Shown here: piece by piece, positions 1,822 to 44,514 of the stretch
Numbering within the stretch: the first letter of the stretch is position 1
How the letters are laid out: the number at the start of each line of letters is the position of its first letter
From: a virus
Taxonomy: Duplodnaviria > Caudoviricetes
IMG/VR virus record: IMGVR_UViG_3300037963_003539
Span: 1 to 45,070 of that record
Reading direction: 5' to 3' (one strand)
Length of the DNA: 45,070 nt
Notes under the pieces: generated by a model
What the model was told of the DNA's origin: nothing
What the model saw: the letters and a program-made list of their open reading frames with translations, nothing else
Database searches by the model: none
Program-made: the position numbers and the translations under genes

Positions 1822-2771
1822 TATGTTGTCAGCCCCTGTACTGTATAAATTAAAGCATTATATTGAGGATTGGAAATACCTGTAGTTAAAGCACCTAAAT
1901 CTAATCGATATTTTATTTCTGACCGTAGGTTTGATACAAAACTTACGTACATAGGATTTAATACTACGTCGATGCCACGTCTAAAATTACTTAATTGTAT
2001 CTCACCCTCAGTGGAGTTTAAAAAAGATGAACCAAGCAAGGAGTTGTTGTAATTTTCCATACTTGGAGGAGTAGCACCATGACTATTATTAGAAGGTAAT
2101 ATTGTGCCCACATTATCAGAGTGCAACATAAGCGCAATAGTGTCTGTCCAATAAGGCTCAGTAGCGTTTGACCAGCCTGCAAGAGATGGATTCGCATACG
2201 CAGTCCCAAATCTACGACCAGACACAGTTATTAAATAGGGTTTTTTACCCCCTCTAGTGTGTTTTGCTGTAGTAAAGTCAAAAGTTGCATTTACATATTG
2301 TGAGGTATTAGCATCAAAATTACTGTTTGGCTCTGTACCACGGGTGTGGTTGTTTGGATATATACCACCTTGAGATAAAAAAGTATGATTACTAGCCTGA
2401 CTTAAACCGCTAGGGATACTAACACCTACCCCACTAGCGCTAAAACTGCTTGTTAGAATAATTCCTGTTTTACTAAACTTTTTAGAGGTGTTTTCTTCAC
2501 CTATTTGGTCAGTAATCAATTGGTCTGGTGCAACAAACTTAACAGTAGGATCTCCAGCTGTAATACTAAAATCATTTACCGTATTTGTACTAGACACAAT
2601 ACCACTTTCTTCTAAATCTCTAAGAGTAAGATTACGATCCTTTGGATTACCGGCATCTCCCGCTTTTACCTTTAAATGTGTATCTACTTGTTTAAGATAG
2701 TTTCTTAACTGTGGATCTAAGTTAGTTGGTAAAGGTGGTAAAGAAGGTGGTTTACTGTTAGAGGTAGCCAT
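1821..2771 (-). CDS. Putative tail-associated/structural protein
   Basis: 316 aa, S/T/N/G-rich; lies between the tail hub gene and the fibre chaperone. Confidence 0.55.
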   Translation of the reverse strand: MATSNSKPPSLPPLPTNLDPQLRNYLKQVDTHLKVKAGDAGNPKDRNLTLRDLEESGIVSSTNTVNDFSITAGDPTVKFVAPDQLITDQIGEENTSKKFSKTGIILTSSFSASGVGVSIPSGLSQASNHTFLSQGGIYPNNHTRGTEPNSNFDANTSQYVNATFDFTTAKHTRGGKKPYLITVSGRRFGTAYANPSLAGWSNATEPYWTDTIALMLHSDNVGTILPSNNSHGATPPSMENYNNSLLGSSFLNSTEGEIQLSNFRRGIDVVLNPMYVSFVSNLRSEIKYRLDLGALTTGISNPQYNALIYTVQGLTT

Positions 2772-16800: not shown

Positions 16801-19800
16801 AAAAATCATCGTCCAAAACTGCGTCTTTTTCCCTTTTCTGTCTTTGAAATTTTTGATTTTCTGTTTCGTATTTATTGTATTTATCTCCCTTTGCTATATA
16901 AGCTAGACTTGGTCTTCCTCTTTTGTCAAGAAGACCTAAAGACTCTCCTATTTCTCCTACTTCTAACTGAGCATAAGTGAAAGGTTTTATTTTTCTTAAA
17001 ACTTCTTTAGCAGTAGGTCCTAAATCTGGTTCTTCTGGGTATTGTAGGAGAGTGTTTAAAGGTTCAAAGTCTGGGTCAATCGTAATAGCCTCACCAGGAC
17101 GAGTTTGCGGCGTTTGTGTTGGTATTACTTCGATTGATTCTTCATTTAAAATAAAGTAATCATCTTTACCACCGTTCTTTGTAAATTTCTGAAAGGCCTC
17201 TCTATCTGTTCCCCATTTTTCTGCATTTTCATATTTAATATTAACTACATCATAACCTTCCTCTCTTGCTTTATTTAAAGTTGATTCCAGAAGTTCAGCT
17301 GCGAATTCCGCTGGAGAATAGTCTACTACTTTTTTATATGAGTCTAAAGTAAGGACTCGAGCACTATCTTTAATACCTGCTTCAACTCTTGCAAGATCTA
17401 TCCTTACCATAGCATCTTGTTCTCTTACCCATTTTTGAGCATCATAGTCATAGTAGACTGCTTCAATATTTCCTTTCCCTTCTCCGACATACACCGTAGT
17501 AGAAGACCACCTGTCTTCATCCGTAGTAAAATAAACAACATCCTCACCAATTTTATTTGTAGCATCAAAAGGTCTTCGAATATCGTTATCTCTCAACCCA
17601 TGCACTGGAGGTTTAGTAGTATCAAATCCTTCCTCGAGAATTTTTGCAACATTTTCTGGGAGAGTAAAATGTACTATCCTATTAGGGTCAGTTGGTGGTG
17701 TTGTTTCTTGCGTTTGTGTTTTAGCTAAGTCAGTGATGTCAATATAATCATTACCATCTGCAAATTTAGTACCATCTAGTTTTCTAAAAATAATGTGTTG
17801 ACGTACTCCATTTACTTCAAAGCCTTGTAATACGTCTGTTAGCATTGAGTTAAAACCAATAACAAGTGAAGTACCATAGTCTTCAACATTATCTGGGTCT
17901 TGTTCTAAGTATAAACTTCTACCAGCTTTTAATAGTTCATTCATAGCAATGTATCTATTACCTTTAGGTAAAGTTGGCTTGTCTAAACTCATTTCTGCCT
18001 CAGTAAGATTTCTTAGTTGGCCCGTACCTGCAGGCACAATTTCCCACCTAAATCCTTGCTGCCCCTTTGGACTTCCAGTAGGGAATCTTTTATTTTTCTT
18101 AGCTGTGGTTGATCTACCTACATTCGCGTATTTATCAGCGTTGTTAAAACCTCGAATAACTATGTTTAAAGCATTTTCTTGGTCAAATGCACGACTTTCT
18201 GGAGTAGGTTCAACTATTATTCTGTTTTCTACTTGTCCGTCTTCTGCTGTCTGTTGGGTTATATCAAAGTTTTTATCTGGATTTTGTTTTACAAGCCCTA
18301 AAAAGAACGTAGCGAAAGTTTGGTTAATACTATTAGCAATAGCTTGTTTTGCAGGAGTAAGTGGGGCTTTTGCTATATTATCTTTTCCTCCTTCAAGATA
18401 ATCAATAACCTGTTGCTGAGCCCTTTTAATATTGTCTATACTCTCTTGTGTATATGGTTTAACTAGCTGTTTAGTTTTAAATTTTTGCCTAAGCGGATCG
18501 TCTAAAGGTATTAAAGCGCCTAAAGGAATTGGTTTTAAAGAACCAACAGGTTGTGGTTTACTTTTTATTCCTCTTTCTGCATCTGTAGTTTTAGGTCCAC
18601 TTGTACTAGCTAAACGCACTGTGCCTTTTTCATTAGGTCTGCCTTCTACTTCTATAAAACCCCTATCGCTTTCTCTTACTTTGTCAGTTTGTGCAGATTG
18701 TTGTTGAGTCTCATAATCAAGTCCTTCTGCTTGCGTTGTGTCAGGACTATCAGCCTCACGCCCTTCTGCTTGAGCTTGCGCTGTCTCAAAATCATCAGTG
18801 TCAGTATCATCTATGGTACTTTTACGTACTTCTGGTTCTTCCTCTTCCTCTTTCTCATTTACTTTTTCAATAGTAGCTGCAGCCACTCTTTCCTCCATGG
18901 CTGTCTCTGGATCTCTTATTCTTATAAAATATTTCTCGTCAGATCTAGGTTTTGCTTTACTCTCAGTATTAAAAATCTCGTCATAATTTCTAAGACCTCT
19001 GCCTTTAAGTCTAAATAATAAGTTTGCCGCTTCTACAGCTTTTGCTCGTTTAGCTGGAGTAGAGTCCATAGTCTGTTGCCAAACTACTTCTCCTTTTCTA
19101 TTTACAACTTCTAAAAGTAAGTCGTGGTTTTGGTTTCTTGCTTCAGAATAACCTAAAACAGAAGCTAGAGTTTTTTCAAACCGATCATAATTTCTACCAG
19201 TTGCCGCTCCTTTAAATTTAGCTATTCTATTTACTTTTGAAGGCTCACTACTATAAAAAGTACCTTGGCCTGGTAGTACTACACTTTGTAATTTTGAGTC
19301 TGTTACTTTTTGACTAAAAGTTTTAGGTATAACTGGTTGCTCTAGGGAAAATTCTTGTTGCCCTGTTTCTTCTTCCGTAGGTTTTTTAGTAGTTGCATTT
19401 CTTCTTTTTTGGTATGCAATTGCATTTAAATCTCTTTGGATGATAGCTAGTGCCTGTGCTTTATTTAAATCTTTCGTACTAGTTTTAAGCTCTATTTGCT
19501 TTTTCTTTAAACGTGTTTCAAGCTCTTTCAATAGAGCGGGACTCATCTGGCCTACCGCCTCTCCTCTGTTAAAAATATATTGAAGGGCATACTCTGGGCT
19601 ATTTACGTTTTCAAGCATAGCGCTAGGCCCTTCCCCCATAATAACTTCTTTACCACTCTCATCTATTACTTTTACATTTCCAGTCTGTGGTGACACAGCA
19701 GTAACGGTAGCTTTGTAAGGTTTACCAGTTGCATCAAATACATCTATTTGATCTCCAGCTTTTACGTTAGGGGGTATTTCAAATTTAGCAGGTTGTTGAT

Positions 19801-21763: not shown

Positions 21764-21775
21764 ACTCTTTACCCT

Positions 21776-24274
21776 CTATAAGTTATTTTTGTTTAGTATT
21801 GCAGAAACCGCGGCTTGTTCTTTAAAGGCTTTCATTAAATTTGGATCCTGTACATCTTCATAAGAAATGGATGCTACAGAACTTCCACCCGCTGGGTCTA
21901 AAATTATAAATCTCTGGGCGTCGGGGTCGTCACGTAATCTAGACATCGTTTCCATGAAAGCTTGCGGAGTTTCGTCGTAATTAGAGACAAATGGAATTTT
22001 TTCTATTAGGTCTCTCCACCAAGATTTATCAGCCAATTGTTTAATTTTCATTTGAATTAGTTTAGCTTGGCCCTCTTTATATCTCTGGACAGAGAGTTTA
22101 AATCCTTCATTCTGTATAATTCTTGCATCTGTTGTTCCGTTTTCTACTCCTCGTAGCATTGAAAGTATCATAGCATTAGCAGTACCTAGGTTAGCTACCC
22201 CTTCGTTAAGCATATTATTTCTTTCTGTCGTACTAAACTTAGGATCATCAATCTTAGTAAAGTCTAAGTTGCCTAAAGCGCTATCTAAAGTATTTGAAAG
22301 AACGCTAATACCTGATGTGTCTACAGGTGGTGCGCTAACTTGTTCTGGTGCGATAAAAGTGCCATAAGTAAGAAAATTTGTAACATTATCTGAAGTCATA
22401 AAGGTATTATACATTTTACTATTTGGGTCCATCGTTCCATATATTCGTAACATAGCCCCATATCTAGCTACAGGAGAGGCTTGCCCAAGGTTACCATTAG
22501 CCATAGCCGGTATATTAAACAGTTCTTCGAGTTTAGCTTGGTCCTTATCATTTACTTCAATAGCTTGGTTTATTAACGTTCTAATGCTGTCTATGGATTC
22601 GCCATTCTCTATAGCTTTTTTTATTTTAGGGAAATACGTTAAACTCTCCTTACTCAAAGAGGCACGTATTGCGCTGTCGTCTGTTGAAGATACTGCTGCT
22701 CCAAATAAATCGGTTTTGCTATTATTAAGAGCAAACTCATAAGGGTCATTTAGATATTCTTGTAACTTCTCGGGGTTAGCAGCACTTAACCTATCTATCA
22801 ATTCTTTGTGCTCTTTACCAGAATAAAATTCATTTACTGTTTTTATGTTGTTTCTTCTATCTTCAGTGCTTATACCGTCCTCTGGGCCAGCTCTTCTTTC
22901 TTCTCTTATACGAGTGTCTATATCGTTTGTAACACCTCTGACCACATCTTTTAAAAGCCCCTCTCTGTAATTATCTGATTCTCTACGAAGCTTCTGTTGC
23001 TCCTCTATACTAAAAAAGCCTAATTGTGTATCACTTATGCCATAAATAGAGCCTTTTGGATAAATTTTTAAATCTCTTGTGGTTACATTTCCGGGAGGAG
23101 AATAGGCAGGTAAACTATACTCTCCTGTTAGACCAGCCTGAGGGACTACATATCCCCTAGCTTTATCACCTGAAGCTTTAAATTGTTTTATTGCCTCTAA
23201 AACTTCTTCTTTAGTATCGGCTGTTGCAACTCTTTCTTTTAAACCAAACAAGTTATCTGTTTCTGTAAGAGTTAAACCATCTCCGCCAGTAAACGCTTGC
23301 TCTTGATCTTCTTGTTCAGTTGCGGTTATTATTTTATTTAGTGCGTCTAGTTTTGTTCGTCTGTCAGTAGTTTCGGAACTAATTTTGTCAAACTCAGCTT
23401 TATACTGATCAAACGCTTGCTCAGTTAAACCCACCATTGCCCCTATTTGACCACCATTAGGCATTTTATTTACTAAATCTGTATAAAGCGCTTTGTAAGC
23501 GGTGTCTAAATATTTATTTATAGGAATATCTTGACCAGCAAAATCTTTTGTTACTCCCCCTAAAAATTCTTGATCTGATGCTATTTCAGAATCGGTCATG
23601 TCAGCTAAATTAGTGCCGTCTGAAGTAAGGTCAGCAGAGTAAAAAAATTGACCGCCGTCTTTGTTTCGACCGACTGATCTGACTAAAGGATTAATAATCG
23701 CGTATCTCCCGTTTTGATTTATACCATATTGAGAGCCAATCCAATCTATTTTTTTACCTTTCCCAAAAAGTTTATAGTCATAACCTAAACTGTTTTGTAA
23801 TAAACTTGCATTATATCTACCATTACTTTCATCCCCTAACGCTTTACCTAAAGTTACAGCAGTGCTCGGTGTTAGTTTAAAAAGATCAGTATCATCTACT
23901 TCAAGCTCGTTCTTAAATTTATCGAAAGCCTCTTCATCTCTAAACGCGGACTGGTCTGGTAAGTCTTCCCACTCTGTATTTTTAAATGTTCTTGCGTCTC
24001 CTAAAATTTGTGTTTGGATATCAAGAATATTACCTAGTTGGTTAGATCGTCCTCTATCTATGCCTTCTTGATTAGTTGCACCAATATCGAAACCAAAAAA
24101 TTGTTTCCATCTATCACCTGGCGTCTTCCTTCTGTATTCTACTTGCGATTGGCCAAAAGGGTTATTACTAGCTAAACCGCTACCTCCACTACCTCCACTA
24201 CCCTCACCTGGAGTAAATGGGTTAAAGGGAGTACTCCCAAAAGTGCTATCAAAAGTATCTTTTTCTGTCGCCAT
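21776..24274 (-). CDS. Internal virion (ejection) protein, 832 aa
   Basis: Large helical protein directly upstream of the giant protein; synteny with podovirus ejectosome genes. Confidence 0.65.
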   Translation of the reverse strand: MATEKDTFDSTFGSTPFNPFTPGEGSGGSGGSGLASNNPFGQSQVEYRRKTPGDRWKQFFGFDIGATNQEGIDRGRSNQLGNILDIQTQILGDARTFKNTEWEDLPDQSAFRDEEAFDKFKNELEVDDTDLFKLTPSTAVTLGKALGDESNGRYNASLLQNSLGYDYKLFGKGKKIDWIGSQYGINQNGRYAIINPLVRSVGRNKDGGQFFYSADLTSDGTNLADMTDSEIASDQEFLGGVTKDFAGQDIPINKYLDTAYKALYTDLVNKMPNGGQIGAMVGLTEQAFDQYKAEFDKISSETTDRRTKLDALNKIITATEQEDQEQAFTGGDGLTLTETDNLFGLKERVATADTKEEVLEAIKQFKASGDKARGYVVPQAGLTGEYSLPAYSPPGNVTTRDLKIYPKGSIYGISDTQLGFFSIEEQQKLRRESDNYREGLLKDVVRGVTNDIDTRIREERRAGPEDGISTEDRRNNIKTVNEFYSGKEHKELIDRLSAANPEKLQEYLNDPYEFALNNSKTDLFGAAVSSTDDSAIRASLSKESLTYFPKIKKAIENGESIDSIRTLINQAIEVNDKDQAKLEELFNIPAMANGNLGQASPVARYGAMLRIYGTMDPNSKMYNTFMTSDNVTNFLTYGTFIAPEQVSAPPVDTSGISVLSNTLDSALGNLDFTKIDDPKFSTTERNNMLNEGVANLGTANAMILSMLRGVENGTTDARIIQNEGFKLSVQRYKEGQAKLIQMKIKQLADKSWWRDLIEKIPFVSNYDETPQAFMETMSRLRDDPDAQRFIILDPAGGSSVASISYEDVQDPNLMKAFKEQAAVSAILNKNNL

Positions 24275-24286
24275 TCTTTATACCTA

Positions 24287-24970
24287 CTATGCAAACAGGA
24301 TTGCCGCCATAGCTGCTGTAGCTAATACGCTACCACCAATCTGTCTATTTTGTGCTGCATGTTGTGCCCTTGCTTGAGTAAAGGCATTCTGTCTACTTAC
24401 ATCATTTGCAGCAGCAGTACCCAACCCAGTTAAAGAGCTCCTGTTAACCCCTTGCCCAATATTTATTAAATTAGCTAAGGTTCTATTATTTGCATCTAAC
24501 TGTGCTAGTCGAGCGTTATTTAAACCGCCTGTCAGTGCTAAAGCTTCGCCTCTTTGGCTAGCTGCTTCTCTACCTTGTCTTAAAGCAGCAGTTTCTGACA
24601 TGCCTAACCTTTCTCTATTACGTCTAGCAACGTCTTCTGCAATTTGTGTTTGCTGCGCTACATCTTCTGGCACAGCATCTACAAGACTTGTGTCTTTTCT
24701 ATTTCGTAACATCTCTTCTTCAAAAGGACGAAAATCATTTATATATCTACCATATTGCCTTATTGCAACATCAGCGTAATCAAAATCTGGGTTAGCAGAA
24801 GGGGAAAGTCCTAACTTACTCCTTTCGTTTTTTAAATAGCCTTGTTGTCCTTCTTTAGTAGTTGTGTCAAAAGCAGTCTTAACCGGAGGTGGAGTAAAAC
24901 CATAGAAAGTTCCTCCCGTTTCGCCACCAATGTTCATGGTATTTAAAAAACTGTAGTCTAAAGCCGCCAT
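24287..24970 (-). CDS. Internal virion (ejection) protein
   Basis: A/Q/R-rich helical protein with hydrophobic C-terminus; synteny. Confidence 0.6.
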   Translation of the reverse strand: MAALDYSFLNTMNIGGETGGTFYGFTPPPVKTAFDTTTKEGQQGYLKNERSKLGLSPSANPDFDYADVAIRQYGRYINDFRPFEEEMLRNRKDTSLVDAVPEDVAQQTQIAEDVARRNRERLGMSETAALRQGREAASQRGEALALTGGLNNARLAQLDANNRTLANLINIGQGVNRSSLTGLGTAAANDVSRQNAFTQARAQHAAQNRQIGGSVLATAAMAAILFA

Positions 24971-24993
24971 ATTATTACACCATACCTCTCATA

Positions 24994-25551
24994 TTAAGTA
25001 ACTGCCAAAGAACGATAAGGGTTCGTCTTATCGTCTGCTAGTACTTGTCTCATTTTTGTTTTAGCTGCGGTGAGACCTATGTTTGCTAGCGCAGCTTTGT
25101 TTGCTCTTCTTACTGTTTGTTTCTCTGCAGCTCTTGCGAGTGTTTCAGATCTTTCTAATTTAGAGGCCTGTGCTAAAGCGCTACCGGCATCTGCTGCTTG
25201 TCCACGAGCAATACCTAATACATTTAAACCCTCTTGGTCTTTTACACCTTTTGCTGTGACGTTTGCAGAAAGCATTTGTCCAATAGCTCCAGAGGCCATG
25301 TTTGCAGCATTGTCTACCGCGCTAGTAACTCCGGGAGCAAGAGGTTGCCCAGTTAAAGCCTGCATAGTATCAGCTTGAGCTCTGCCACGTAGAGTTTGTT
25401 GTCTGTTAGAGCTACGAGCTTCATCTCTCATTTCCCTTAATAACGGGTCATAAGTGCTTTCAAAGTAATCCTGATCAGCTTTTGCTATAGCAGATTGAAT
25501 TTTTTCAGTTTCACCTGGTTGGTAATCTGCCTGTTTTGGACCACTGCCCAT
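24994..25551 (-). CDS. Internal virion (ejection) protein
   Basis: Ala/Gly/Gln-rich, MGSGPK N-terminus; follows the GNAT-like gene as in P22/T7-like layouts. Confidence 0.6.
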   Translation of the reverse strand: MGSGPKQADYQPGETEKIQSAIAKADQDYFESTYDPLLREMRDEARSSNRQQTLRGRAQADTMQALTGQPLAPGVTSAVDNAANMASGAIGQMLSANVTAKGVKDQEGLNVLGIARGQAADAGSALAQASKLERSETLARAAEKQTVRRANKAALANIGLTAAKTKMRQVLADDKTNPYRSLAVT

Positions 25552-34668: not shown

Positions 34669-35146
34669 TTTCTTTGAATTCTACTATATTTTTAGCCCAC
34701 CAATAAAGCTCATCTTCTCTTAAAGTGTGTTTTAACATATTTGCTCTACTACAAACTAGTTGGATATTGGTGACTAAATACTCAATGTCTGGGTTTATTC
34801 GATCAATAGAGGCATTCAAATCTTTTCTGCCATTACCGTCTTTATGATAAGTCATAAACAATCCAGTCAATGCACACCTACCTTCTTGCTTATCCCATAG
34901 TTCTAAAACATCTTCTAATTCAATATCCCAAACAACTTTAGATTTTTCTTTTTTAGTTCTTCCGTGTTTAAGTTGGCCGAAAAGGCGGGTTAGGTATGCT
35001 TGTGGTGTTGCACTAGCAGCTTTTCGTCGTACCATGTCAACACAGGGCTTACACTTTTTTGAATAGACTGTGCCACGATCATTTCGGACTCCAAAATCCT
35101 CTAAAGGCAACTCCTTTTTGCAAGAAGTACATTTCCTCGTACTCAT
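34661..35146 (-). CDS. HNH-like (His-Me finger) endonuclease with N-terminal zinc finger
   Basis: CTSC...CKPC, W..QEGRCALTG, SIDRI....Y...NIQLVC..AN..K. Confidence 0.7.
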   Translation of the reverse strand: MSTRKCTSCKKELPLEDFGVRNDRGTVYSKKCKPCVDMVRRKAASATPQAYLTRLFGQLKHGRTKKEKSKVVWDIELEDVLELWDKQEGRCALTGLFMTYHKDGNGRKDLNASIDRINPDIEYLVTNIQLVCSRANMLKHTLREDELYWWAKNIVEFKEND

Positions 35147-35266
35147 GCTTGCTAACTGTAGCATAAATTTTTGCTAGAAAATTTTTTTGTGAAAATTTTT
35201 TTCTATATCGCTCATGCAAGGCACCCCTTACTTAGAGAGACCCAGCCACTAGTCCCGAATCTGAGT

Positions 35267-35307
35267 TTGGAACCTTGTCCCACAAAAAGTAGCATTGGAA
35301 CCTTGTC
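35267..35307 (+). repeat. 13-bp direct repeat TTGGAACCTTGTC (two copies)
   Basis: Exact copies at 35267 and 35295 in the divergent intergenic region. Confidence 0.8.
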
Positions 35308-35412
35308 AAAAGTTAGAGTCAGTTAGCTTCGGCAGAGACATCTTATTTAGCTAAAGCTTGGTATAAAACTTTATACTTCTCCCCACTACCCCACAGGATT
35401 TATACATTTTCG

Positions 35413-35444
35413 TACATAAAGCTACGCATTTAATGTAGATATAG
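35413..35444 (+). promoter_or_regulatory. Early hairpin element, copy 1
   Basis: TACA-TAAA-GCTACGC-A-TTTA-A-TGTA-GATATAG upstream of the first rightward gene. Confidence 0.7.
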
Positions 35445-35508
35445 CCTCATTGTGATTGGTAGAGATAGGCTCTATCAGCACTTATCTTTTTTTATTTATG
35501 GAGAAATT

Positions 35509-35880
35509 ATGAATAAGAAAATCGTAGAGAAAAGTTTGAAAGTATTCGCTCTTAAGAATGATACTTTTAAAACTTCTGACCCAGTTATCCAAATAGCTGT
35601 TGTCAATTCTAAAGGCGAAAAAGAGTATGTAAATCTTGGTCGCAATACTGGTCGTTGTCTTGAAGGTTTCAAGAATGACGGAAGAATAACCCTTCAGAAT
35701 ACTGGAGATAACCTGTTGCAGAGAAAACAATCTCTTGACGTTCTTCAGTCTCACATCGACACTGCTAGGAAGTTCGGTAATTGCAAATTAGAGTTCACCC
35801 TCTTTGATGCTAAAAACTGGAATGAAGATGAACCTCAGTCAGCTGAACAACCTGACGATGAAGGAAATCCTCTTGAGTAG
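35509..35880 (+). CDS. Hypothetical early protein
   Basis: ATG after GGAGA (start re-assigned to MNKKIV); acidic C-terminal tail. Confidence 0.7.
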   Translation: MNKKIVEKSLKVFALKNDTFKTSDPVIQIAVVNSKGEKEYVNLGRNTGRCLEGFKNDGRITLQNTGDNLLQRKQSLDVLQSHIDTARKFGNCKLEFTLFDAKNWNEDEPQSAEQPDDEGNPLE

Positions 35881-36196
35881 TTCAGGTAAATCAAATGTCC
35901 AGAAGGCAAAGAGTATCTTCTGGACTACCTTGTACTTAGGTAAAGATATTGGTAGTAAAAGCTTAGACATTGCAGACAAGAGCTTAAACACTCTTAGTCA
36001 ATGGATTGCTAATGTCCACGACCAAGCTAATACTCCCAATCCGATTAACCCAGAGCTTGTAGAACTTGAAAAACAACTCAATAACCTCTCTCCTGAACTT
36101 AAAGAGAAGGTTGAGAAAGGTATCAAGGCTATAATCTCACAAATTATGGAGAATGATGCTAGAGAACGCACTAATGATAAGTCAGATAGTGTATAA
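35858..36196 (+). CDS. Hypothetical early protein
   Basis: Overlaps the previous gene; start uncertain (MKEILL). Confidence 0.55.
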   Translation: MKEILLSSSGKSNVQKAKSIFWTTLYLGKDIGSKSLDIADKSLNTLSQWIANVHDQANTPNPINPELVELEKQLNNLSPELKEKVEKGIKAIISQIMENDARERTNDKSDSV

Positions 36197-36269
36197 CCTT
36201 ACCTTACCAGTATTCGCTACTGTAAGTGTAATGGTAGCCTTTAAAATGTTCACTGGTTTTAAAGACTAA
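36153..36269 (+). CDS. Small hydrophobic protein, 38 aa
   Basis: MMLENALMISQIVYNLTLPVFATVSVMVAFKMFTGFKD after GGAG; ends just before a terminator. Confidence 0.45.
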   Translation: MMLENALMISQIVYNLTLPVFATVSVMVAFKMFTGFKD

Positions 36270-36275
36270 CACTTC

Positions 36276-36331
36276 GTCAGAGTACCTACAATCCTCCCTT
36301 TTCACTTCGTAGGTACTCTGACACTTTTTTT
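36276..36331 (+). terminator. Rho-independent terminator with a large pyrimidine-rich loop
   Basis: Perfect 14-bp stem GTCAGAGTACCTAC/GTAGGTACTCTGAC followed by a T-run. Confidence 0.8.
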
Positions 36332-36430
36332 ATGACCTTCAATTGGCATGTGTGCCTACTATCATCAAGCTTATTATTACTATCATCAGCTTGTCTGATG
36401 ATGTCTGCTGGTACGCGGTTGGTTGCCGAT

Positions 36431-36775
36431 GGTACAGAGTTGTGCAACCAAGGTGTACCGGGTGTACCACCAGTGTACCGGCTAATTCAGCGTGTGCTGG
36501 TACACCTGAAATGCCTGCTGGCGTTGACTTTCAGCGTGCGAACGTCGAAGTGTACCGGGTGTACCACAGGTTTTGCGTTAGCTTTAGAGATAGACCGTAG
36601 ACCGTGGTTATAGAATCTTTGTTTAAACTAACAATTAACCGGTACAAATGGTACACCTACGACGAATCCTAGCTAACGCAGGGCTTTCCGGTGTACCACT
36701 AGGTTTTTCATTGTGGTACACCCAACAGCGAAAGCTCAATGAAATCAACAGCTTAAGGTGTACCAGGGTGTACCA
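36431..36775. repeat. Iteron-like field: 13 copies of TGTACC/GGTACA in both orientations; candidate replication origin
   Basis: Copies at about 36431, 36454, 36463, 36474, 36499, 36551, 36560, 36641, 36650, 36692, 36715, 36759 and 36769. Confidence 0.75.
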
Positions 36776-36791
36776 GCAAGACAGCTATTCA

Positions 36792-36824
36792 TACAATATG
36801 CTACGCCATATATGTAGATATAGT
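36792..36824 (+). promoter_or_regulatory. Early hairpin element, copy 2
   Basis: TACA-ATAT-GCTACGC-C-ATAT-A-TGTA-GATATAGT, then an AT-rich leader and the AATATAGGAG RBS. Confidence 0.7.
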
Positions 36825-36866
36825 TTAATTTTAATAATAATTCTAATTTTAAATATAGGAGTAAAT

Positions 36867-37130
36867 ATGGAAATATTAATGTATGTAGTTCTGAGTTTTG
36901 GCTCAGGACTTATTTTGGGTGGTCTTCTAACTATAAGACCTACGATGAAACTTCAATCTGAAGTAAAAGAAGACATGGACTGGGTATCTGACAAGTTAGA
37001 TTGGATAGGCGAGCAGTTCGACTTCATACGAGCACAGCAACAAAGGCTGGCTATTGCTAGTTCAAAGCTTGGTGTTGATATCAGCACTAAAGCTATGAAA
37101 GAAAACTGTGTTGATGCGGAGATTCTATAA
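36867..37130 (+). CDS. Hypothetical protein with N-terminal TM helix and coiled coil
   Basis: Start re-assigned to MEILMY after AGGAG. Confidence 0.7.
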   Translation: MEILMYVVLSFGSGLILGGLLTIRPTMKLQSEVKEDMDWVSDKLDWIGEQFDFIRAQQQRLAIASSKLGVDISTKAMKENCVDAEIL

Positions 37131-37603
37131 TGAACAAAGTAAAAATGACCTTTAAAGATTGGGACTGTGAACTGGTTGTAAGACCTTACATGGATCCCCC
37201 TTTGGCTTGTATTCAACTAAATGGTGCCGAAGGTACTAGCTATGAACACGAGCCAATAGCGATAGCAACTTGTAATTTACCTGAACAGTGGGAAGAATTC
37301 TGTGATGCTGTGCGTTCTCATGATGTTGCTAGTCCTTCAATGAATATAACTAGGGATACCAAAGAGTTTCGTGGGCCTTTGCCTTTGACCTTTATCAAAG
37401 ATTATTCAGAGAACGAAGGTATGTTGAATGCCTTGTTTGCCCATGACATTTGCGTGGGTTTCAATCCAGACGGAGAAGAAACGAAAGACCCTGATGACAT
37501 GCTGTGGTTTCACAATGGCTTCATTTCGGCACCACTCGTGGCTATTTGTAATCTAACTTTGGCTAAACAATATCGTGAAGCCTTTTCTGGGAGAAAACTA
37601 TGA
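37130..37603 (+). CDS. DUF4313-like hypothetical protein
   Basis: P.AIATCNLP...FIKDYSENEGML.AL motif. Confidence 0.6.
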   Translation: MNKVKMTFKDWDCELVVRPYMDPPLACIQLNGAEGTSYEHEPIAIATCNLPEQWEEFCDAVRSHDVASPSMNITRDTKEFRGPLPLTFIKDYSENEGMLNALFAHDICVGFNPDGEETKDPDDMLWFHNGFISAPLVAICNLTLAKQYREAFSGRKL

Positions 37604-37788
37604 AGATAAGAGATAATTTATTAACTCTTACTTGGAAAGCTCAGCATCCAATTAAGTACAAACTAATGAAAGCAGGAGCGTGGGTACTAGCGATTTTGTT
37701 ACTACCCCTCATTTTAACTTACTTTACTTACATTATATGGAGAGACAACAATGAAAAATCTTATGCCTGTAAAAAGAATGCATCTTAG
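37600..37788 (+). CDS. Small membrane protein
   Basis: 62 aa, one TM helix, ATGA overlap. Confidence 0.6.
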   Translation: MKIRDNLLTLTWKAQHPIKYKLMKAGAWVLAILLLPLILTYFTYIIWRDNNEKSYACKKNAS

Positions 37789-38155
37789 CGATAGCATTGA
37801 CCTTTATGAGTTATCAAAAGTTGCCGACATTTATTCGGTTGGTTTTGGTGGTGCTTATGCACAAATCATAGTGCGTTCGAAGAATACTTCCATTAAGTAT
37901 TCAATTGTTAATACTTGTCTATCAAGGCTTGTAGAACCTACTGAAGACTTGAATGACTGGGAAATAACATTGCATCCTTATACAGAAGATGTACATGTTA
38001 TTACTGGTTTAACTGCCAAGGAGATAATTGAGATTGTTGATACATCAATAGCAGAAGATTTTATCGACTTGGGAAATGGAGATGATGATGAACCAAAATC
38101 ATATACAGAACCAGTTGATGATGATTATAAAGCTTATCTTGCTGACAATGATTAA
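37751..38155 (+). CDS. Hypothetical protein with acidic C-terminus
   Basis: 134 aa, GGAG RBS. Confidence 0.7.
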   Translation: MKNLMPVKRMHLSDSIDLYELSKVADIYSVGFGGAYAQIIVRSKNTSIKYSIVNTCLSRLVEPTEDLNDWEITLHPYTEDVHVITGLTAKEIIEIVDTSIAEDFIDLGNGDDDEPKSYTEPVDDDYKAYLADND

Positions 38156-38157
38156 TG

Positions 38158-38190
38158 TACATAATGCTACGCCATTATTGTAAATATAGT
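38158..38190 (+). promoter_or_regulatory. Early hairpin element, copy 3
   Basis: TACA-TAAT-GCTACGC-C-ATTA-T-TGTA-AATATAGT; downstream leader nearly identical to that of copy 2. Confidence 0.7.
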
Positions 38191-38235
38191 TAAATTTTAA
38201 TAATTCTAATCTTAATTAAATATAGGAGTGAAATC

Positions 38236-38439
38236 ATGGCAATACCTGAAAATGTAATGCAATTCGTGGATATCCACGACCCAATGGAGCAGACTACACA
38301 TCAAGTTGAAGAGTCTGTATTTAGTAACTGGTGTCAAGAACATCAAGCAGAAGTTCACATCTTTATGGATGTGTATGGTCTGACTTATTCAGATGCCGAA
38401 AAACAAGCGTTCTTCTACTACAATGGAATACTCAATTAA
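38236..38439 (+). CDS. Hypothetical protein
   Basis: 67 aa, strong AGGAG RBS. Confidence 0.7.
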   Translation: MAIPENVMQFVDIHDPMEQTTHQVEESVFSNWCQEHQAEVHIFMDVYGLTYSDAEKQAFFYYNGILN

Positions 38440-38614
38440 AGTAGGAGACAAAGTTCAAGTTAAAGGTAAGTGCATATACGGGACAGTCGTCAAATGGCTG
38501 TCCCCAAGTAGAGTAGTTATCTGGGACGATGAGCTATCCCATCGAGTGGTTAGTCCTACAAGGAGTTACCACCCGAATCAACTCAAAAGAATTCAAGCTG
38601 ATTTATATGTATAA
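38423..38614 (+). CDS. Small SH3/KOW-like beta-barrel protein
   Basis: IKVGDKVQVKG...GTVV.W motif; start re-assigned to MEYSIK. Confidence 0.55.
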   Translation: MEYSIKVGDKVQVKGKCIYGTVVKWLSPSRVVIWDDELSHRVVSPTRSYHPNQLKRIQADLYV

Positions 38615-38686
38615 GCCAGCTGAATCGGTGTATTTGTGTAAGCAAATGCGTTTAATTAATCACTTAATATATTAGGAGTAAAAAAT

Positions 38687-39466
38687 ATGACAAGTGAATA
38701 CTTTGACCCAAGTGAGCAAGAGACTCAAGAACTCTTGCCTAAAGTTCAGTCTAGTCTAGCTGACGATACTGAAGATACTAACCGAGACCCTGAAGGTGTT
38801 GCTGAGCGTAATGCAAAAGCAGACATAGCATTGCCTGATTGGTACTTTCGCAAGCATGCGATAACAGACGACGGTAAGCCAACTTTCAATGTCACTGTTG
38901 TTGGTAAGATTATGGAAGTGTTTGACGCTAAGTTCGGCACTGACCTAGTCTTCAGAGACATTGACCTTGGTAAAGACAAGGACGGCAATGACAAAACCTT
39001 GACTGCTGAACAGCAACAAGAAACTTACGAACATGCAGTTAACGATATCGTAACTGGTATTCGTCATCTGTTGATTGTTGACCCTCAGTCCACTGGTCTT
39101 AACTTTCTACAGTTGACTACTAGAACTTGGTCTGAGTTCGTCAGTGTCTGTCATGAATATGCAGACTCAATGAGCAACCAAAAAGATGAAGAGATTCCTA
39201 CTTGGTTGATTGAGCGTGAAGAGAAGATGCTTGACCTTGGTCGCAAGGCAAGAATGTTGTCTTCTGCTTTGGCAATCATTGACAATGACTTTGGTTTGAA
39301 AGATGTCAAGATTCAGAAGTCCCGTGTTCAATCTGCTGTTGAGCAAAGATTGCAAAGACTTGCTGAGTGGAACTTCAAACAACAAGCTGACAACTCTGGC
39401 AAAGTCAACAGAGAGCTCAACGCTCAAGCTAATGCTCACATGCAAAGCATTGTAGACAACGCGTAA
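38687..39466 (+). CDS. Hypothetical helical protein, 259 aa
   Basis: Strong AGGAG RBS; long ORF; no recognised motif. Confidence 0.8.
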   Translation: MTSEYFDPSEQETQELLPKVQSSLADDTEDTNRDPEGVAERNAKADIALPDWYFRKHAITDDGKPTFNVTVVGKIMEVFDAKFGTDLVFRDIDLGKDKDGNDKTLTAEQQQETYEHAVNDIVTGIRHLLIVDPQSTGLNFLQLTTRTWSEFVSVCHEYADSMSNQKDEEIPTWLIEREEKMLDLGRKARMLSSALAIIDNDFGLKDVKIQKSRVQSAVEQRLQRLAEWNFKQQADNSGKVNRELNAQANAHMQSIVDNA

Positions 39467-39477
39467 GCGTTGCTATT

Positions 39478-39855
39478 AGTCTACCCCGACGGTAACGAAC
39501 GGAAAGTCGCTGTCGGGACTGACTCTAAAATTGCGGACTTTCCACCTATCGTGACTTAGATTGTTATCTAGATAACGTGTAACGGTTATACCTACTAGGT
39601 TGCGATAGGCACTGAAGAAGTGCACACAAAGTCCTAGCTAGCCTTATCCCTGTTTGAACGATACGTCCTAGCTAGGCACAGAATTTAAAGTCCTACGCTG
39701 TTATACGCACCACGTGGACGCTGGTTGATGCGGTTTTAGCTAAACAACCCCTCAGCGTAGGCACAGAATTCGGCTCAGTTTTCCCACAAGTCGAAGTTTA
39801 AGTAGAGAGCCGAATAGGTTCAAAATAAACCTTTTCATAACTACTTAAACTTCGC
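39478..39855 (+). ncRNA. Candidate structured RNA array (tandem stem-loops with shared CCTA...TAGGCAC(A/T)GAA base)
   Basis: ORF-free ~400 nt; stems with G-U pairs on the + strand; conserved stem bases with variable loops. Confidence 0.55.
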
Positions 39856-39877
39856 ATTAATTAATATAGGAGAGAAT

Positions 39878-40036
39878 ATGCAATATCGCAGTAATCTACC
39901 AAGACCCTTTAACAAGGGCAAAAAAATAGGGAACCGTAAGGTTATTTCATCAACTTCAGTGAATGGCAAAACTGTACGCCAACAAGTGGTGTATCAGATT
40001 GACGGTCAGTCACTTACAAGACATGAGAGAGTGTAA
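39878..40036 (+). CDS. Small basic protein, 52 aa
   Basis: MQYRSNLPRPFNKGKKIGNRKVISSTSVNGK...TRHERV after AGGAG; TAATG coupling to the next gene. Confidence 0.65.
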   Translation: MQYRSNLPRPFNKGKKIGNRKVISSTSVNGKTVRQQVVYQIDGQSLTRHERV

Positions 40037-40587
40037 TGGGCTTAGATATGATGGCTGGTTGGGCTGAACCTCAACCAAAACCAGAAAGCAATGTAGTGCC
40101 AATCAAAAAAGAAGAACTTGAAATTAATGCTGAGTTTGATTGGCGTAAACATTCTAGACTACATAACCTTATGCAGACTATTTGGTTCTGTAAAAAGTAT
40201 GAAGGTACACCTGTACCACCTGAGTCTGGAATAAACAGAACAAACTTCAACGAAGGCTTGGACGCTACAGCAGAAGATAAACTTTACATTCCAGAAGACC
40301 AAGAAGAGCGTGCTTTTCTTTATCGTGGTTTGACTGTAACCATTGGCACAGTGATACATGAGTTTAATTCTGGCGAGAATGTGCAGTTAGATAAAACAGA
40401 TATAAAAGTAATTCGTGACTTCGTAATGAACAACAGCTTACCTTTTTGTGCTGACGGCATGTTCTGGGGACATCAGTTTCAAGAAGATGCTATGAAAGAA
40501 TACAAAGACCAAGATTTAGAGTTTTGTGAAAAAGCTCTGAAATGGTTAGAAGAAGGTAAAGAAGTTTATTACACTTCTTGGTGGTAG
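40036..40587 (+). CDS. Conserved phage hypothetical protein (MGLD...WRKH..LH...Y.SWW family)
   Basis: Recognisable terminal motifs of a widespread phage family of unknown function. Confidence 0.75.
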   Translation: MGLDMMAGWAEPQPKPESNVVPIKKEELEINAEFDWRKHSRLHNLMQTIWFCKKYEGTPVPPESGINRTNFNEGLDATAEDKLYIPEDQEERAFLYRGLTVTIGTVIHEFNSGENVQLDKTDIKVIRDFVMNNSLPFCADGMFWGHQFQEDAMKEYKDQDLEFCEKALKWLEEGKEVYYTSWW

Positions 40588-40614
40588 GTTTTCTATATTT
40601 TCCCTACCGAACAC

Positions 40615-40670
40615 GGCTAGGACTGGCTCTCTCCCTAATACAAAAGCCAGTCCTAGCTTCTATATTTTTT
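40615..40670 (+). terminator. Rho-independent terminator
   Basis: 13-bp stem GCTAGGACTGGCT/AGCCAGTCCTAGC followed by a T-rich tail. Confidence 0.7.
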
Positions 40671-40691
40671 ATAAATTTTATCAAAGTCTGC

Positions 40692-41020
40692 CGTGTGTGC
40701 CTGCTCGTACATTCGGTTCCGGCCCGGCTATACCGCACCGCACTCCGTGCGTGCGCTAAGCCTAGCCTTCACCTGCATGTACCTTCGCACGTGTGCCATA
40801 TAAAGATGTGTGCCCGATAGCTTACGCTCGTACGCCCCGGGAAGGGCGTACCTTCGCACATCCGATAGGTTATACATACAAAGTTAGTCAAGCTAGCACG
40901 CCCCCCTGAAGGGCGTGCCTACGCTCATCCGATGCACTTTAAATGCCGAAATGTACTTAGTAACACTGAGTCAATAAGTTGCTCAGTACAAATCTTAGAT
41001 TTGTACCTTCGCTTAGTGAC
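40692..41020. repeat. Four GCT(C/A)-[stem-loop]-CT(T/A)CGC structured repeat units
   Basis: Stems GTACAT/ATGTAC, GTACGCCC/GGGCGTAC, GCACGCCC/GGGCGTGC, GTACAAATC/GATTTGTAC, each followed by CTTCGC or CTACGC. Confidence 0.7.
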
Positions 41021-41106
41021 TATTATTTACAAGGAGTCAAACTATGCAAATTATACAAAAACTGTTTCCTACTTTTTTTGGTGTATTTAACAAATTAGGA
41101 GGCCAT

Positions 41107-41295
41107 ATGGCTACGAGAATGTTTAGAGCTACATTTGTAGATTCTTTTTCACAAAATACTATTGTAGTGGAGTTTGAAGCTCCATTTCCAGTAGACGAGC
41201 AAGTTGATTACAAAAAGCTTGCGACCCAAAGGTTGGGCGAAATGATACGAAACGACTTAATTAAGATTCGTGATATTGAACCCATTGAAATATAA
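41107..41295 (+). CDS. Hypothetical protein
   Basis: MATRMF after AGGAGG; an in-frame upstream ATG at 41044 also has an AAGGAG RBS. Confidence 0.65.
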   Translation: MATRMFRATFVDSFSQNTIVVEFEAPFPVDEQVDYKKLATQRLGEMIRNDLIKIRDIEPIEI

Positions 41296-41316
41296 CTATT
41301 TGATAAGAGGAGTACT

Positions 41317-42351
41317 ATGTCAGATACAACAACAATGCAGACCGTTACAGCAACGGATCTCAAACAGGAGATACGCGATAACATGCGTATTGGACTTAAC
41401 ACTATGATATGGGGGGGACCAGGTATTGGTAAATCCGAGATTCCACAGCAAGTCGCTGATGAACTCAACATACCATTACTAGATTTTCGTGCCAATCTAT
41501 TCGACCCTGTCGATGTTCGTGGTATACCACGAGTGATTGATAATGAAACCTATGGTGCAATGACATCATGGGCACCACCAGATATTTTTCCTACCGAAGA
41601 AACGCACGGCCCTCGTGGTTTGTTCATGATTGACGAACTACCAACGGCACCACCTGCTACACAGAATGCGTTTCTACAACTTCTACTAACGCGTCAGGTT
41701 GGTAATTACAAAATGCCTGATGGTTGGTCATGTCTTGCTGCAGGTAATCGTCTAACAGACGGTGCCTCAGTCTACCAAATGCCCTCACCTGTAAGAAACA
41801 GACTGATGCATTACGAGCTTGAACCTAGCTTGGACGCTTGGTGCGAGTGGGCGATAAAGAACAAAGTAAATACTACTTTGGTTTCCTTTATGCGTTATCG
41901 TCCTAACCTTCTATACAGTTTCAAAGCTGATGAGTATGCTTTTCCTACTCCTCGAAGCTGGTCATTTGTCGACAAGCGTTTGAGACTAACAGATAACATG
42001 GACGATTCAAGATTGTTCTTTGGTATTGCTGGTGCTGTAGGCACAGGCCCTGCTGGAGAGTTTCTTGCGTTTGCAAAAATTGCAGACAAGTTGCCAGATA
42101 TTGACAACTTGATTGCTAACCCTAGTTCATACATGCCATCGGAGGATCCTGCGGTATTGTATGCACTTACAGGTGCAGTGGCTTCTAGAGCAAAAGAATC
42201 TACTCTAGAAAACATTATGAAACTTGGTAAGAAGATACCTACTGAGTTTCAGGTCGTTCTAGTCAAAAGCATTATTGCAATTGACAGAGCGTTATTTCAA
42301 CAACCTACGATACAAAGCTGGATTTCAGATAATTCAGATGTTGTATTGTAA
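41317..42351 (+). CDS. MoxR-like AAA+ ATPase
   Basis: Walker A GGPGIGKS, DVRGIP, Walker B FMIDEL, AAGNR, P.RNR, TPRSW. Confidence 0.9.
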   Translation: MSDTTTMQTVTATDLKQEIRDNMRIGLNTMIWGGPGIGKSEIPQQVADELNIPLLDFRANLFDPVDVRGIPRVIDNETYGAMTSWAPPDIFPTEETHGPRGLFMIDELPTAPPATQNAFLQLLLTRQVGNYKMPDGWSCLAAGNRLTDGASVYQMPSPVRNRLMHYELEPSLDAWCEWAIKNKVNTTLVSFMRYRPNLLYSFKADEYAFPTPRSWSFVDKRLRLTDNMDDSRLFFGIAGAVGTGPAGEFLAFAKIADKLPDIDNLIANPSSYMPSEDPAVLYALTGAVASRAKESTLENIMKLGKKIPTEFQVVLVKSIIAIDRALFQQPTIQSWISDNSDVVL

Positions 42352-42365
42352 CAACGGAGAAAATT

Positions 42366-43136
42366 ATGGCTACAGTTCGTATGTCAAACAAGCTCACAGT
42401 AGACCTCTGTAAAGAGTATGCAAAGAGCTATGAAAACACTAAACCAAAACCAGAGTACCCTGCGTCTCTTGGCGATGCTATCTATGACACTCATGTCAAA
42501 CCTATTATTGACAGAATCAAAGATGCAGCAAAGCTTAATGATGTAGAGTTCTTTGACCTTAACGAAGATGATGATGATGCATTTTTTATGAACGATAACG
42601 AGTTGCATGTAACGTTTGAAACAGAGTGTTACGATGAAAAAGAAAGAGACCCAGGATATGGCGATTTACCTTGGGAGTTGCAAAATCTAGTTCAAGAGTA
42701 TGAATGTAGAATTGATACACCAGAACTTCAAAGTGCAAACATGCCTCTTTCGGTAGAACAACCATTCTTAAAAGGTAGTTCTTATAGAACTCAACTAGCA
42801 TTCAATCTTTACCGAGCACCTCAAGACGAAGCGGTTCTCAAAGCTCTTGAGATATCTAATGAGAGACACATGTACGACATCAACAAACGAAATGAAGTCG
42901 CTAAGTTTGCTAAGATGTTGCTTCGTTTTCAAACGCTTAATCAAGCATTGAAAGCATGGCCCGGCGGTGCTTTGGCAGCTATGGTGCAAAAAGTTGACCC
43001 GGATAAAATGGTCACTATTCACAAGAAAACAGAGCGTAAAGCAAAAGCTAAACAAGACAAAGGCTTTGTCGAACAACATGCTGGCGACTTCAACGCTGTG
43101 ATTCTTGGTTCAACATTACTAGGAGATGATGACTAA
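42366..43136 (+). CDS. Hypothetical protein, possibly Nmad5-like
   Basis: N-terminal VRMS.KL and C-terminal QTLNQALKAWP resemble the Nmad5 T..L...WP signature. Confidence 0.5.
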   Translation: MATVRMSNKLTVDLCKEYAKSYENTKPKPEYPASLGDAIYDTHVKPIIDRIKDAAKLNDVEFFDLNEDDDDAFFMNDNELHVTFETECYDEKERDPGYGDLPWELQNLVQEYECRIDTPELQSANMPLSVEQPFLKGSSYRTQLAFNLYRAPQDEAVLKALEISNERHMYDINKRNEVAKFAKMLLRFQTLNQALKAWPGGALAAMVQKVDPDKMVTIHKKTERKAKAKQDKGFVEQHAGDFNAVILGSTLLGDDD

Positions 43137-43402
43137 TGGAATATAAAAAGAAAGAAACAAAATCAGAAACTCTTTCTGTTCGAATTAAACCAAGCACATA
43201 CAATAAGTTACAAAAACTTATGGATGCTATGTTTATGAAAAACCCAAGTGAGTTTGTAGAATTTGTTGCTGACCATTTGCATATACCAAATAAAGAAGTT
43301 TTGAAAGAGTATCTTGATACTATTAAAGAACTTGAAAAAAGGAAAAAGCATTTGCAAGCAAACCTAGAATTTCGCTTAAAACCAAAAGGAGTTAATGACT
43401 AA
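43136..43402 (+). CDS. Ribbon-helix-helix DNA-binding protein
   Basis: ETLSVRIKPSTYNKLQKL...SEFVE pattern. Confidence 0.55.
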   Translation: MEYKKKETKSETLSVRIKPSTYNKLQKLMDAMFMKNPSEFVEFVADHLHIPNKEVLKEYLDTIKELEKRKKHLQANLEFRLKPKGVND

Positions 43403-44514
43403 TGGAAGATATTAAAACAGCTTTTACCCGAGCGCGTTCTTCGTTGTTGTTGAAACAACCATTCTTCGGTACGCTCTGCCTTCGATTAGGAGCAGAGTTT
43501 ACCGAAGACATTCCAACAGCAGGAACAAACGGCGAAAAGCTACTAATCAATCCCACATTCTTTCTCAAGTGTACAGCTGAGCAAAGAGTTGGTTTGCTGG
43601 CTCACGAAGTTATGCATTGTGTTTACATGCATGTGCTTCGTCTCAATGAGCGTGACCCATTTCTTTGGAATGTGGCTGGCGACTATGTAATCAACCTAGT
43701 CGTCACTGACGCTGGCATGATATTGCCCGACGGCGGATTACTTGATGAAAAGTATCGTGATATGACTGCAGATGAGATTTACAACACTCTGCAACAAAAT
43801 GGTGGTCGAGATGCATTGTCTGGACTGTCTGACTTTGACGGTACTTGTGTCCAACCTAATCCATCTTTGACCGACAGTGGTTCACAAAGTAAACACGAGG
43901 CAGACATGCGAGTTGCAGTGCAACAAGCCGCTGAGACTGCTAAAGCACAAGGCAAACTACCTGGTAGCTTGTCTAAGCTGGTTGATGAGATTGTGTCGCC
44001 ACAAGTCAATTGGAAACAAAAGCTTGCACGATTCTTGAAAAGCAATAACAAATCAGATTACAGCTGGCAAAAACCTAATCGTAGGTTCGTTGCTAACGGT
44101 TTGTATCTGCCTAGTTTGTATTCACCATGTATCGAAGAGATTGGTGTCATCGTTGACACCTCTGGTTCGCGTACTGACGAAGAACTTAATCAAGACTTAG
44201 GCGAGATATCGTCTATGTTGGTTGATGCCAACGTAGAAAATGTTCGCTTTATGCAAGCAGATACAGATGTGACTGATGAGCAAACATTCACTCGTGAATC
44301 AATGCCTTTGAAAGTCACAATGCAAGGGCGTGGTGGTACAAGATTTGGGCCAGCTATTGCGGAAATGGCAGAGAAATATCCAAGTGTCTCTTGCCTTATT
44401 TATCTCACAGACTTGGAGTCAAATGACTTTGGGAGTGAACCACACTTTCCAGTTGTTTGGATAACTAATTCAGCTACGGAGGCTCCTTATGGAGAAATCA
44501 TCGAAGTCAATTAA
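43402..44514 (+). CDS. DUF2201-type metallopeptidase-vWA protein (MoxR partner)
   Basis: AHEVMH zincin, WNVAGDY.IN, MIDAS DTSGS, GRGGT.F, YLTD. Confidence 0.88.
   Translation: MEDIKTAFTRARSSLLLKQPFFGTLCLRLGAEFTEDIPTAGTNGEKLLINPTFFLKCTAEQRVGLLAHEVMHCVYMHVLRLNERDPFLWNVAGDYVINLVVTDAGMILPDGGLLDEKYRDMTADEIYNTLQQNGGRDALSGLSDFDGTCVQPNPSLTDSGSQSKHEADMRVAVQQAAETAKAQGKLPGSLSKLVDEIVSPQVNWKQKLARFLKSNNKSDYSWQKPNRRFVANGLYLPSLYSPCIEEIGVIVDTSGSRTDEELNQDLGEISSMLVDANVENVRFMQADTDVTDEQTFTRESMPLKVTMQGRGGTRFGPAIAEMAEKYPSVSCLIYLTDLESNDFGSEPHFPVVWITNSATEAPYGEIIEVN

Follow-up and report, generated by a model that had tools for sequence, protein, structure and literature searches.

What are the three repeated hairpins that head early genes in the virus record IMGVR_UViG_3300037963_003539, and what might read them? 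The window analysed here is the whole 45,070-nucleotide stretch of that linear record, which is 77% complete and represents a KPP25-like marine podophage whose late arm lies on the minus strand and whose early arm lies on the plus strand. Among cultured phages, the closest capsids belong to the Pseudomonas phages KPP25 and phiR18 (54%). The family comprises many marine phages that are uncultured, and about 1000 stored IMG/VR stretches match its terminase patterns. We found that the three repeats are real and that they are one lineage's version of a hairpin-plus-box module, a real regulatory module that extends across the family.

The preliminary description of this DNA had placed three copies of a bulged hairpin on the plus strand, and we located all three, beginning at 35413, 36792 and 38158, with RATATAG after each. 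With up to two mismatches allowed, the 25-base pattern matches the window three times, against a shuffle mean of 0.06 and a shuffle maximum of 1, and GCTACGC occurs nowhere in the window outside these copies. Copy 1 (35413–35444), with its template-strand C-GTA-G cap and RATATAG box, heads the first rightward gene, an open reading frame (ORF) of 123 residues from its ATG without a family match (35509–35880); the leader between them (35445–35508) carries a second hairpin of nine pairs (35456–35478) and a GGAG ribosome site. Copy 2 (36792–36823) has the last GTGTACC repeat 18 bases upstream and is followed by an AT-rich leader with an AGGAG site (36824–36866) and by an 87-residue ORF (36867–37130). 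The sequence of this leader is close to that of the copy 3 leader (38190–38235). Copy 3 (38158–38189) begins two bases past the stop codon of a 134-residue ORF and precedes an ORF of 67 residues (38236–38439); all of these features lie on the plus strand. A sigma-70 scan of that strand found a -35/-10 pair at none of the three copies, in agreement with the earlier statement that they lack a -35, and the single plus-strand site called in 35150–38700 lies inside an ORF. An Rfam search of 35100–41400 returned zero matches.

Eight distinct copies, from the window and its close relatives, were aligned to follow the pairing. The template-strand GC-GTA-GC cap that had been claimed is unchanged in all eight. 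The inner four-base arms had been said always to pair, and this largely stands, with pairing kept in 78 of 80 cells, but the outermost inner pair is broken in two of the eight copies. Three of the ten pairs vary on both sides and seven are constant. Of the two bulges described at constant positions, the inner one is absent from an alternative register with a six-base loop, which the energy model favours. This register arises in copies with C at base 16, among them the second and third window copies and five of the eight aligned copies.

Only very close relatives carry the motif in its exact form. The 25-base pattern was present in 42 viral stretches, with true copies from four contigs, all close relatives; further scans gave nine viral and 19 metagenome stretches, amounting to six distinct module 25-mers and one unrelated match, and one run of contigs yielded only a relative at about 95%. 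Among the terminase-linked relatives, the near-identical L048 alone carries it, and it is absent from phages with 97–99% identical terminase and AAA ATPase. A relaxed pattern, TACA-N17-TGTARATATAG, was found in at least 121 stretches of viral contigs, which, but for one known relative, lack the GCTACGC core and apparently match by chance; it was set aside.

The family-wide form of the module emerged from two positions that were set without reference to hairpins. Where the late arm meets the early arm, the family has a direct repeat, GGAACCTTGT (35269–35306 in the window, plus strand); slot 1 comes after it and could be placed at 83 of 150 loci, with 60 distinct starts. Slot 2, placed at 69 loci of which 49 are distinct, comes after a short-repeat block that in the window consists of 13 TGTACC/GGTACA repeats in both orientations (36431–36774). 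This block, likely a replication origin, spans about 283–338 bases in most relatives, and its word varies by lineage (TGTAAC, TGTTCC; a GTTACGA type in KPP25). A stem with a T run, resembling an intrinsic terminator, stands ahead of the block in the window (36276–36331, plus strand, upstream of copy 2) and in 25 of 48 distinct loci, so transcription would need to restart near slot 2. At slot 2, z scores below -1.5 were reached by template-strand DNA in 29 of 35 clusters, by coding-strand DNA in 24 and by RNA in 24, compared with six and seven of 35 in downstream controls. Compared with the coding strand, the template strand folded more stably in 22 clusters and less stably in 11 (p=0.007; controls 15 and 17).

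In relatives the hairpin is followed by a lineage-specific box, often with a TAG 4–9 bases from the stem base as judged by eye (TCTAGTT, CTAGATA, CATATAG, CTTAGGTT), and then by an AT-rich leader and a ribosome site. The module is found after a terminator-like stem and repeat block or at a divergent junction, always before such a leader and ribosome site. Within a nine-genome clade the TTC spacer and CA(T/A)ATAG box are constant and the stems differ, six of seven pairs varying on both sides (six copies, three genomes). The type is also specific to the genome: eight of 15 genomes have their own slot 1 as the top-ranked match for slot 2, and the mean rank is 3.3 versus 8. A literature search, outside which supplements lay, found no account of this module.

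The loops of these hairpins bear on whether they fold as DNA. GNA triloops and tandem sheared GA pairs are stabilisers of DNA hairpins. A symmetric detector for GNA/GNNA caps, run on both strands under a strict rule, found such caps in 16 of 33 slot 2 clusters, against about 0.8 in shuffles (0.4 per strand) and none of 34 controls; by the same rule, 17 of the 33 lack a GNA cap. Over 267 two-by-two internal loops from dereplicated early intergenic DNA, TC/TC, which places tandem GA on the template strand, occurs 15 times and GA/GA three times (p=0.008; 0–3 and 0–4 in shuffles). The true terminators here have RNA-type loops and T runs. In slot 2 stems alone, A.C mismatches number 13 and G.T pairs four, in a set where the finder over-extends some stems. 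On balance we see a hairpin of DNA type that leans towards the template strand without obeying a strict template rule, and this would suit cruciform extrusion better than an N4-style reading of the loop.

Phage N4 offers the closest precedent for the cap. Hallmarks of its system are a start 11 bases from the loop centre and transcription that resists rifampicin and requires gyrase and SSB. Its early promoters, in the available part of the published account, are built around a GC-rich heptamer, centred at -11, between flanks that vary but pair; they are extruded by supercoiling and served by a virion polymerase, and the loop is stable as a DNA hairpin (PMC4496689); the early and middle promoters of Pseudomonas phage LUZ7 are also described as hairpins in the accessible text of PMC9163698. 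Set against these partial accounts, the window module resembles N4 P1–P3 and the LUZ7 promoters in its GC-rich heptamer, template G-N-A triloop, variable complementary stem bases and clustering at the start of the early arm. Unlike the short uninterrupted stem of N4, however, its stem is longer and bulged, with two pairs and then a bulge, and it has a conserved box downstream. Across the family the loop and its strand vary by lineage (four of 33 clusters have a coding-strand GNA cap), and neither a virion nor a second phage RNA polymerase was found. The genes of near-complete relatives include those for PolA, a primase-helicase, an SNF2 helicase and a nuclease; RNA polymerase and sigma factor families had zero matches among the 42 and 27 of their proteins scanned. 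Sigma factor PF04542 (Sigma70_r2) was detected in none of five near-complete relatives, with the control matching in 10 of 14, and PF00940, for the T7-type polymerase, likewise in none of five, with its control also silent.

The preliminary description had proposed looking for RNA polymerase domains in the 832- and 3622-residue proteins. The 3622-residue giant (10895–21763, minus strand), our candidate reader, has conserved N- and C-terminal blocks (residues about 200–620 and 2690–3621) around a hypervariable middle with a 2OG-Fe(II) oxygenase (residues 2404–2543, HExxH site), and neither a polymerase Pfam family nor a polymerase catalytic motif was found in it. Polymerase families were absent from 18 other giants scanned and from one more; the 18 have SLOG, NADAR, lysozyme, peptidase or 2OG-oxygenase domains, or nothing. 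Its 832-residue neighbour (21776–24274, minus strand), a probable second ejection protein, gave no usable family or domain match and is barely alignable even to phages sharing a 97% identical capsid. A model of the 933-residue C-terminal block of the giant, built from 58 sequences (mean predicted local distance difference test score, pLDDT, 74.9), is nearly all helix and matches in BFVD a KPP25 structural protein (E 1.5e-16), polyvalent proteins and the LKA1 internal protein, with a weak match to the PhiM1 ejectosome (E 0.004). The C-terminus thus models as a T7-gp16-type ejection protein, and the giant is predicted to be injected. The model and the cargo domains (SLOG, NADAR, 2OG-oxygenase, lysozyme) recall gp16-type ejection proteins and large polyvalent proteins; a promoter-reading role, in contrast, is proposed here only. 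PDB sequence searches with the C-terminal block and one middle gave zero matches. The fold search covered the C-terminal block and the middle of the shortest giant, that of G015 (residues 387–970, pLDDT 72.8), which forms a string of small alpha/beta domains; for this middle Foldseek returned no match, the best VIA hit (Z 7.8) was a protein of unknown function, and no polymerase appeared among the fold matches. Rows at Z of about 4 (R3H, Alba, SepF) reflect common arrangements and were not taken as evidence. Since no polymerase or sigma factor was found and the C-terminus of the giant models as gp16-type, membership in the N4 system fails: the window module is N4-like in part and is not a member of it. 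Hairpin promoters are established in phages that bring their own polymerase, N4 and LUZ7.

A link between the module and the giant came from genome comparisons. The four probable ejection genes (10895–25551 in the window) form an island of divergence: towards phages with a 97% identical capsid the giant is about 33% alike, the 832-residue protein is almost unalignable and the two small proteins are 52–62% alike. Two such phages, G006 and G007, share a common box type and have giants 90% identical to each other, whereas the window, with a capsid 97% identical to theirs and a giant 33% alike, has a different module. Likewise, G026 and G031 are 100% identical in terminase, portal and capsid, yet their giants are 44/66% alike and their modules differ, each matching the module of a genome with the same giant. 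In trees of 31 genomes, box type (labelled by eye) tracks the N-terminal block of the giant in five cases where the capsid tree, a quick tree, disagrees. Among 30 close pairs, slot 1 likeness correlates with likeness of the giant at rho 0.58–0.76, compared with 0.23–0.33 for terminase, 0.21–0.40 for capsid and 0.18 for the AAA ATPase. We take this co-variation as a lead rather than a demonstration.

We favour, with confidence that is evenly balanced, an early promoter made of hairpin and box for the host polymerase, which may have the aid of a protein that the phage injects. In this scheme the hairpin would form in DNA 4–9 bases upstream of a -10-like TAG box, in the usual place of a -35, and transcription by host RNA polymerase would begin within the AT-rich leader. 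We infer the promoter activity, folding of DNA rather than RNA as a cruciform under supercoiling, as in N4, and the host polymerase as the enzyme. The earlier proposal of a structure-based early promoter is thus supported by position, by the presence across the family of hairpins that occupy the same slots yet are unrelated in sequence, and by loops of DNA type, but its likeness to N4 proved limited to the loop. The weakest step is the proposal that specificity comes from the giant ejection protein, or from a partner ejected with it. That the ejected gp16-type protein is the matching reader, so that promoter and protein would form an exchangeable lock and key directing host polymerase to the incoming genome, is a tentative extension that we think unlikely; the injected factor envisaged earlier gains indirect support from the co-variation with the giant, whereas the family-wide test does not single the giant out.

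Several observations weigh against the favoured promoter and its link to the giant. The window hairpins, at -1.7 to -3.9 kcal/mol (z +0.2 to -0.9), are not better than shuffles, and their co-changes consist entirely of A/T swaps, which amount to about four events in three paralogues. The split of slot 2 caps between strands, 12 template versus four coding, is not significant (p=0.08); slot 1 has five template and three coding caps among 39, and over all intergenic perfect stems the strand bias of triloops is 35 versus 27 (p=0.37). The slot hairpins fold well as RNA in the 24 clusters noted above, the CATATAG clade contains G.T pairs as well as loops other than GNA, and over all intergenic stems coding-strand G.T exceeds A.C by 65 to 23, a mark of RNA folding which implies that RNA hairpins are abundant in the same region. 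There is no fixed-offset -10 consensus (TAnnnT) across lineages, and an N4 hairpin inserted between -35 and -10 silences a sigma-70 promoter, according to the available part of PMC4496689. With respect to the giant, slot 1 likeness correlates nearly as highly with portal (0.45–0.64) and adaptor (0.64), and the 30 pairs of the close-pair test, with terminase and capsid at least 90% alike, are not independent. In a partial Mantel test on 30 genomes, where slot extraction was wrong for several and was partly redone, capsid (0.24, p=0.0005) exceeded the N-terminal block of the giant (0.14, p=0.02) and its C-terminal block (0.00), and a host switch could drive the change of both giant and module.

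The main rival, which draws in part on the RNA folding of those 24 clusters and on the overall G.T excess of the coding strand, is one that we regard as somewhat unlikely. Here the module would be a cassette border with an RNA-level hairpin (a weak terminator, a pause, or a processing or stabilising stem) beside a -10-only promoter, the repeats would serve mainly gene shuffling, and gene conversion would explain the likeness within a genome. Its model is the PeSL cassettes of the T4-type phages RB49 and phi1, which, in the accessible portion of PMC2839356, combine stem-loops, consensus sigma-70 promoters and terminator stems with recombination and drive gene shuffling. As far as that portion allows comparison, the module shares with them a repeated intergenic stem-loop, an AT-rich tract, a ribosome site before ORFans and a place at the borders of swapped genes: copy 3 follows a stop codon almost directly, and in relatives the gene behind copy 2 (in one of them another gene behind the same module) and the sequence before copy 3 differ. 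It differs from them in lacking a consensus sigma-70 -35/-10 pair and a T run, in its DNA-type loops and in its genome-specific type. The terminator scan did not call the module hairpins, and a separate terminator-like stem lies upstream. Slot 1 has nothing to terminate, and the loops TTC, TAC, TCC and TACC, like the internal loops of TC/TC type, do badly in RNA and are complementary to motifs that are stable in DNA; the excess of A.C over G.T in slot 2 stems, with the over-extension already mentioned, points the same way.

The remaining readings rank lower. A single-stranded DNA signal apart from transcription, for priming, protection or pausing on the strand exposed at entry or replication, seems improbable to us: slot 2 does adjoin the origin-like block in 69 loci, stable mini-hairpins are scattered over the leading region, with long arrays in L272, and the family encodes its own primase-helicase and PolA, but a lineage's module is also found at a distance from the block, where it invariably precedes a ribosome site and start codon, and a fixed spacer links the stem to the downstream box. 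Lower still we place an operator in duplex DNA, with TACA-N17-TGTA bound by a dimeric phage or host regulator at a weak promoter. The seven constant pairs, the invariant inverted repeat formed by the outer arms and the weak folding energy would fit it; the alternative, already raised in the preliminary description, is nevertheless disfavoured because the inner arms differ yet stay complementary, while relatives' orthologous slots keep the stem and not the sequence, and no regulator family was seen among the early proteins scanned. Least probable of all, and very much so, is a genuine promoter of the N4 type, with an unrecognised virion RNA polymerase as its reader. The template GC-GTA-GC heptamer with its variable pairing flanks is as in N4 (PMC4496689, in the part available), an invariant G lies 11 bases from the loop centre and a 3622-residue virion gene lies on the opposite strand; but the giants scanned show no polymerase family or catalytic motif and have an all-helical gp16-like C-terminal block, the shortest leave only about 580–700 residues between their conserved blocks, and loops and stem lengths vary across the family.

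Cultured phages provide a distant comparison for the favoured hairpin-plus-box promoter. Of all cultured relatives, the Kochitakasuvirus phages KPP25, phiR18 and A1002 come closest in capsid and are among the closest in PolA (33–34%), and KPP25 has the same two-arm layout, a repeat block among its early genes and GNA-capped hairpins at three early heads. Its 64 kb genome contains five C-G-closed GNA triloop stems of at least five pairs, three of them at early gene heads, where the loop is C-GGA-G, and one just past its own repeat block. The genus is, however, distant, and two of the three KPP25 hairpins carry the GNA loop on the coding strand. The available parts of the Kochitakasuvirus papers (PMC13730344, PMC13340246) mention no promoter or RNA polymerase. 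A host search for the family gave matches in metagenome-assembled genomes spanning unrelated phyla and, among isolates, in Motiliproteus and Pasteurella (52–55% capsid identity), from which the host is not established.

Other features of the early arm were recorded alongside the module. The junction at 35165–35306 combines, family-wide, phased A tracts, a leftward GAGCGATATAG-like element and the GGAACCTTGT direct repeat, and is a candidate late promoter or packaging site; a GATATAG in the junction element matches the window's own box. A CTACTATCA(T/C) word at 36350–36400 is repeated ahead of the block and at the junction in most relatives. At 39480–39870, tandem long stems lie between AAGTCCTA and TAGGCAC, with number and inner sequence varying among relatives; these are possible RNA processing sites. 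A terminator-like stem at 40600–41020 is followed by units bounded by GCTCGTAC...GTACCTTCGCA around small GC hairpins, whose copy number varies in relatives, and a pair of genes for an AAA ATPase and a vWA-metallopeptidase (41317–44514) is kept across the family. In L272 (1400–1950) there are more than ten GCTCGC-TTC-GCTCGC-type units, each with a template-strand GAA cap and tandem GA, and the relative G001 (L324:16109–19639) has a cassette of CHASE2-adenylate-cyclase, FecR-domain and repeat-protein genes.

If the favoured reading is true, host RNA polymerase, alone or with an ejection protein, would recognise the structure of the DNA when it initiates. Modules and giants that differ from lineage to lineage form a natural series, from which lock-and-key pairs could readily be drawn, and as the family is common and its cultured relatives KPP25, phiR18 and A1002 have hairpins at matching positions, the question is directly testable.

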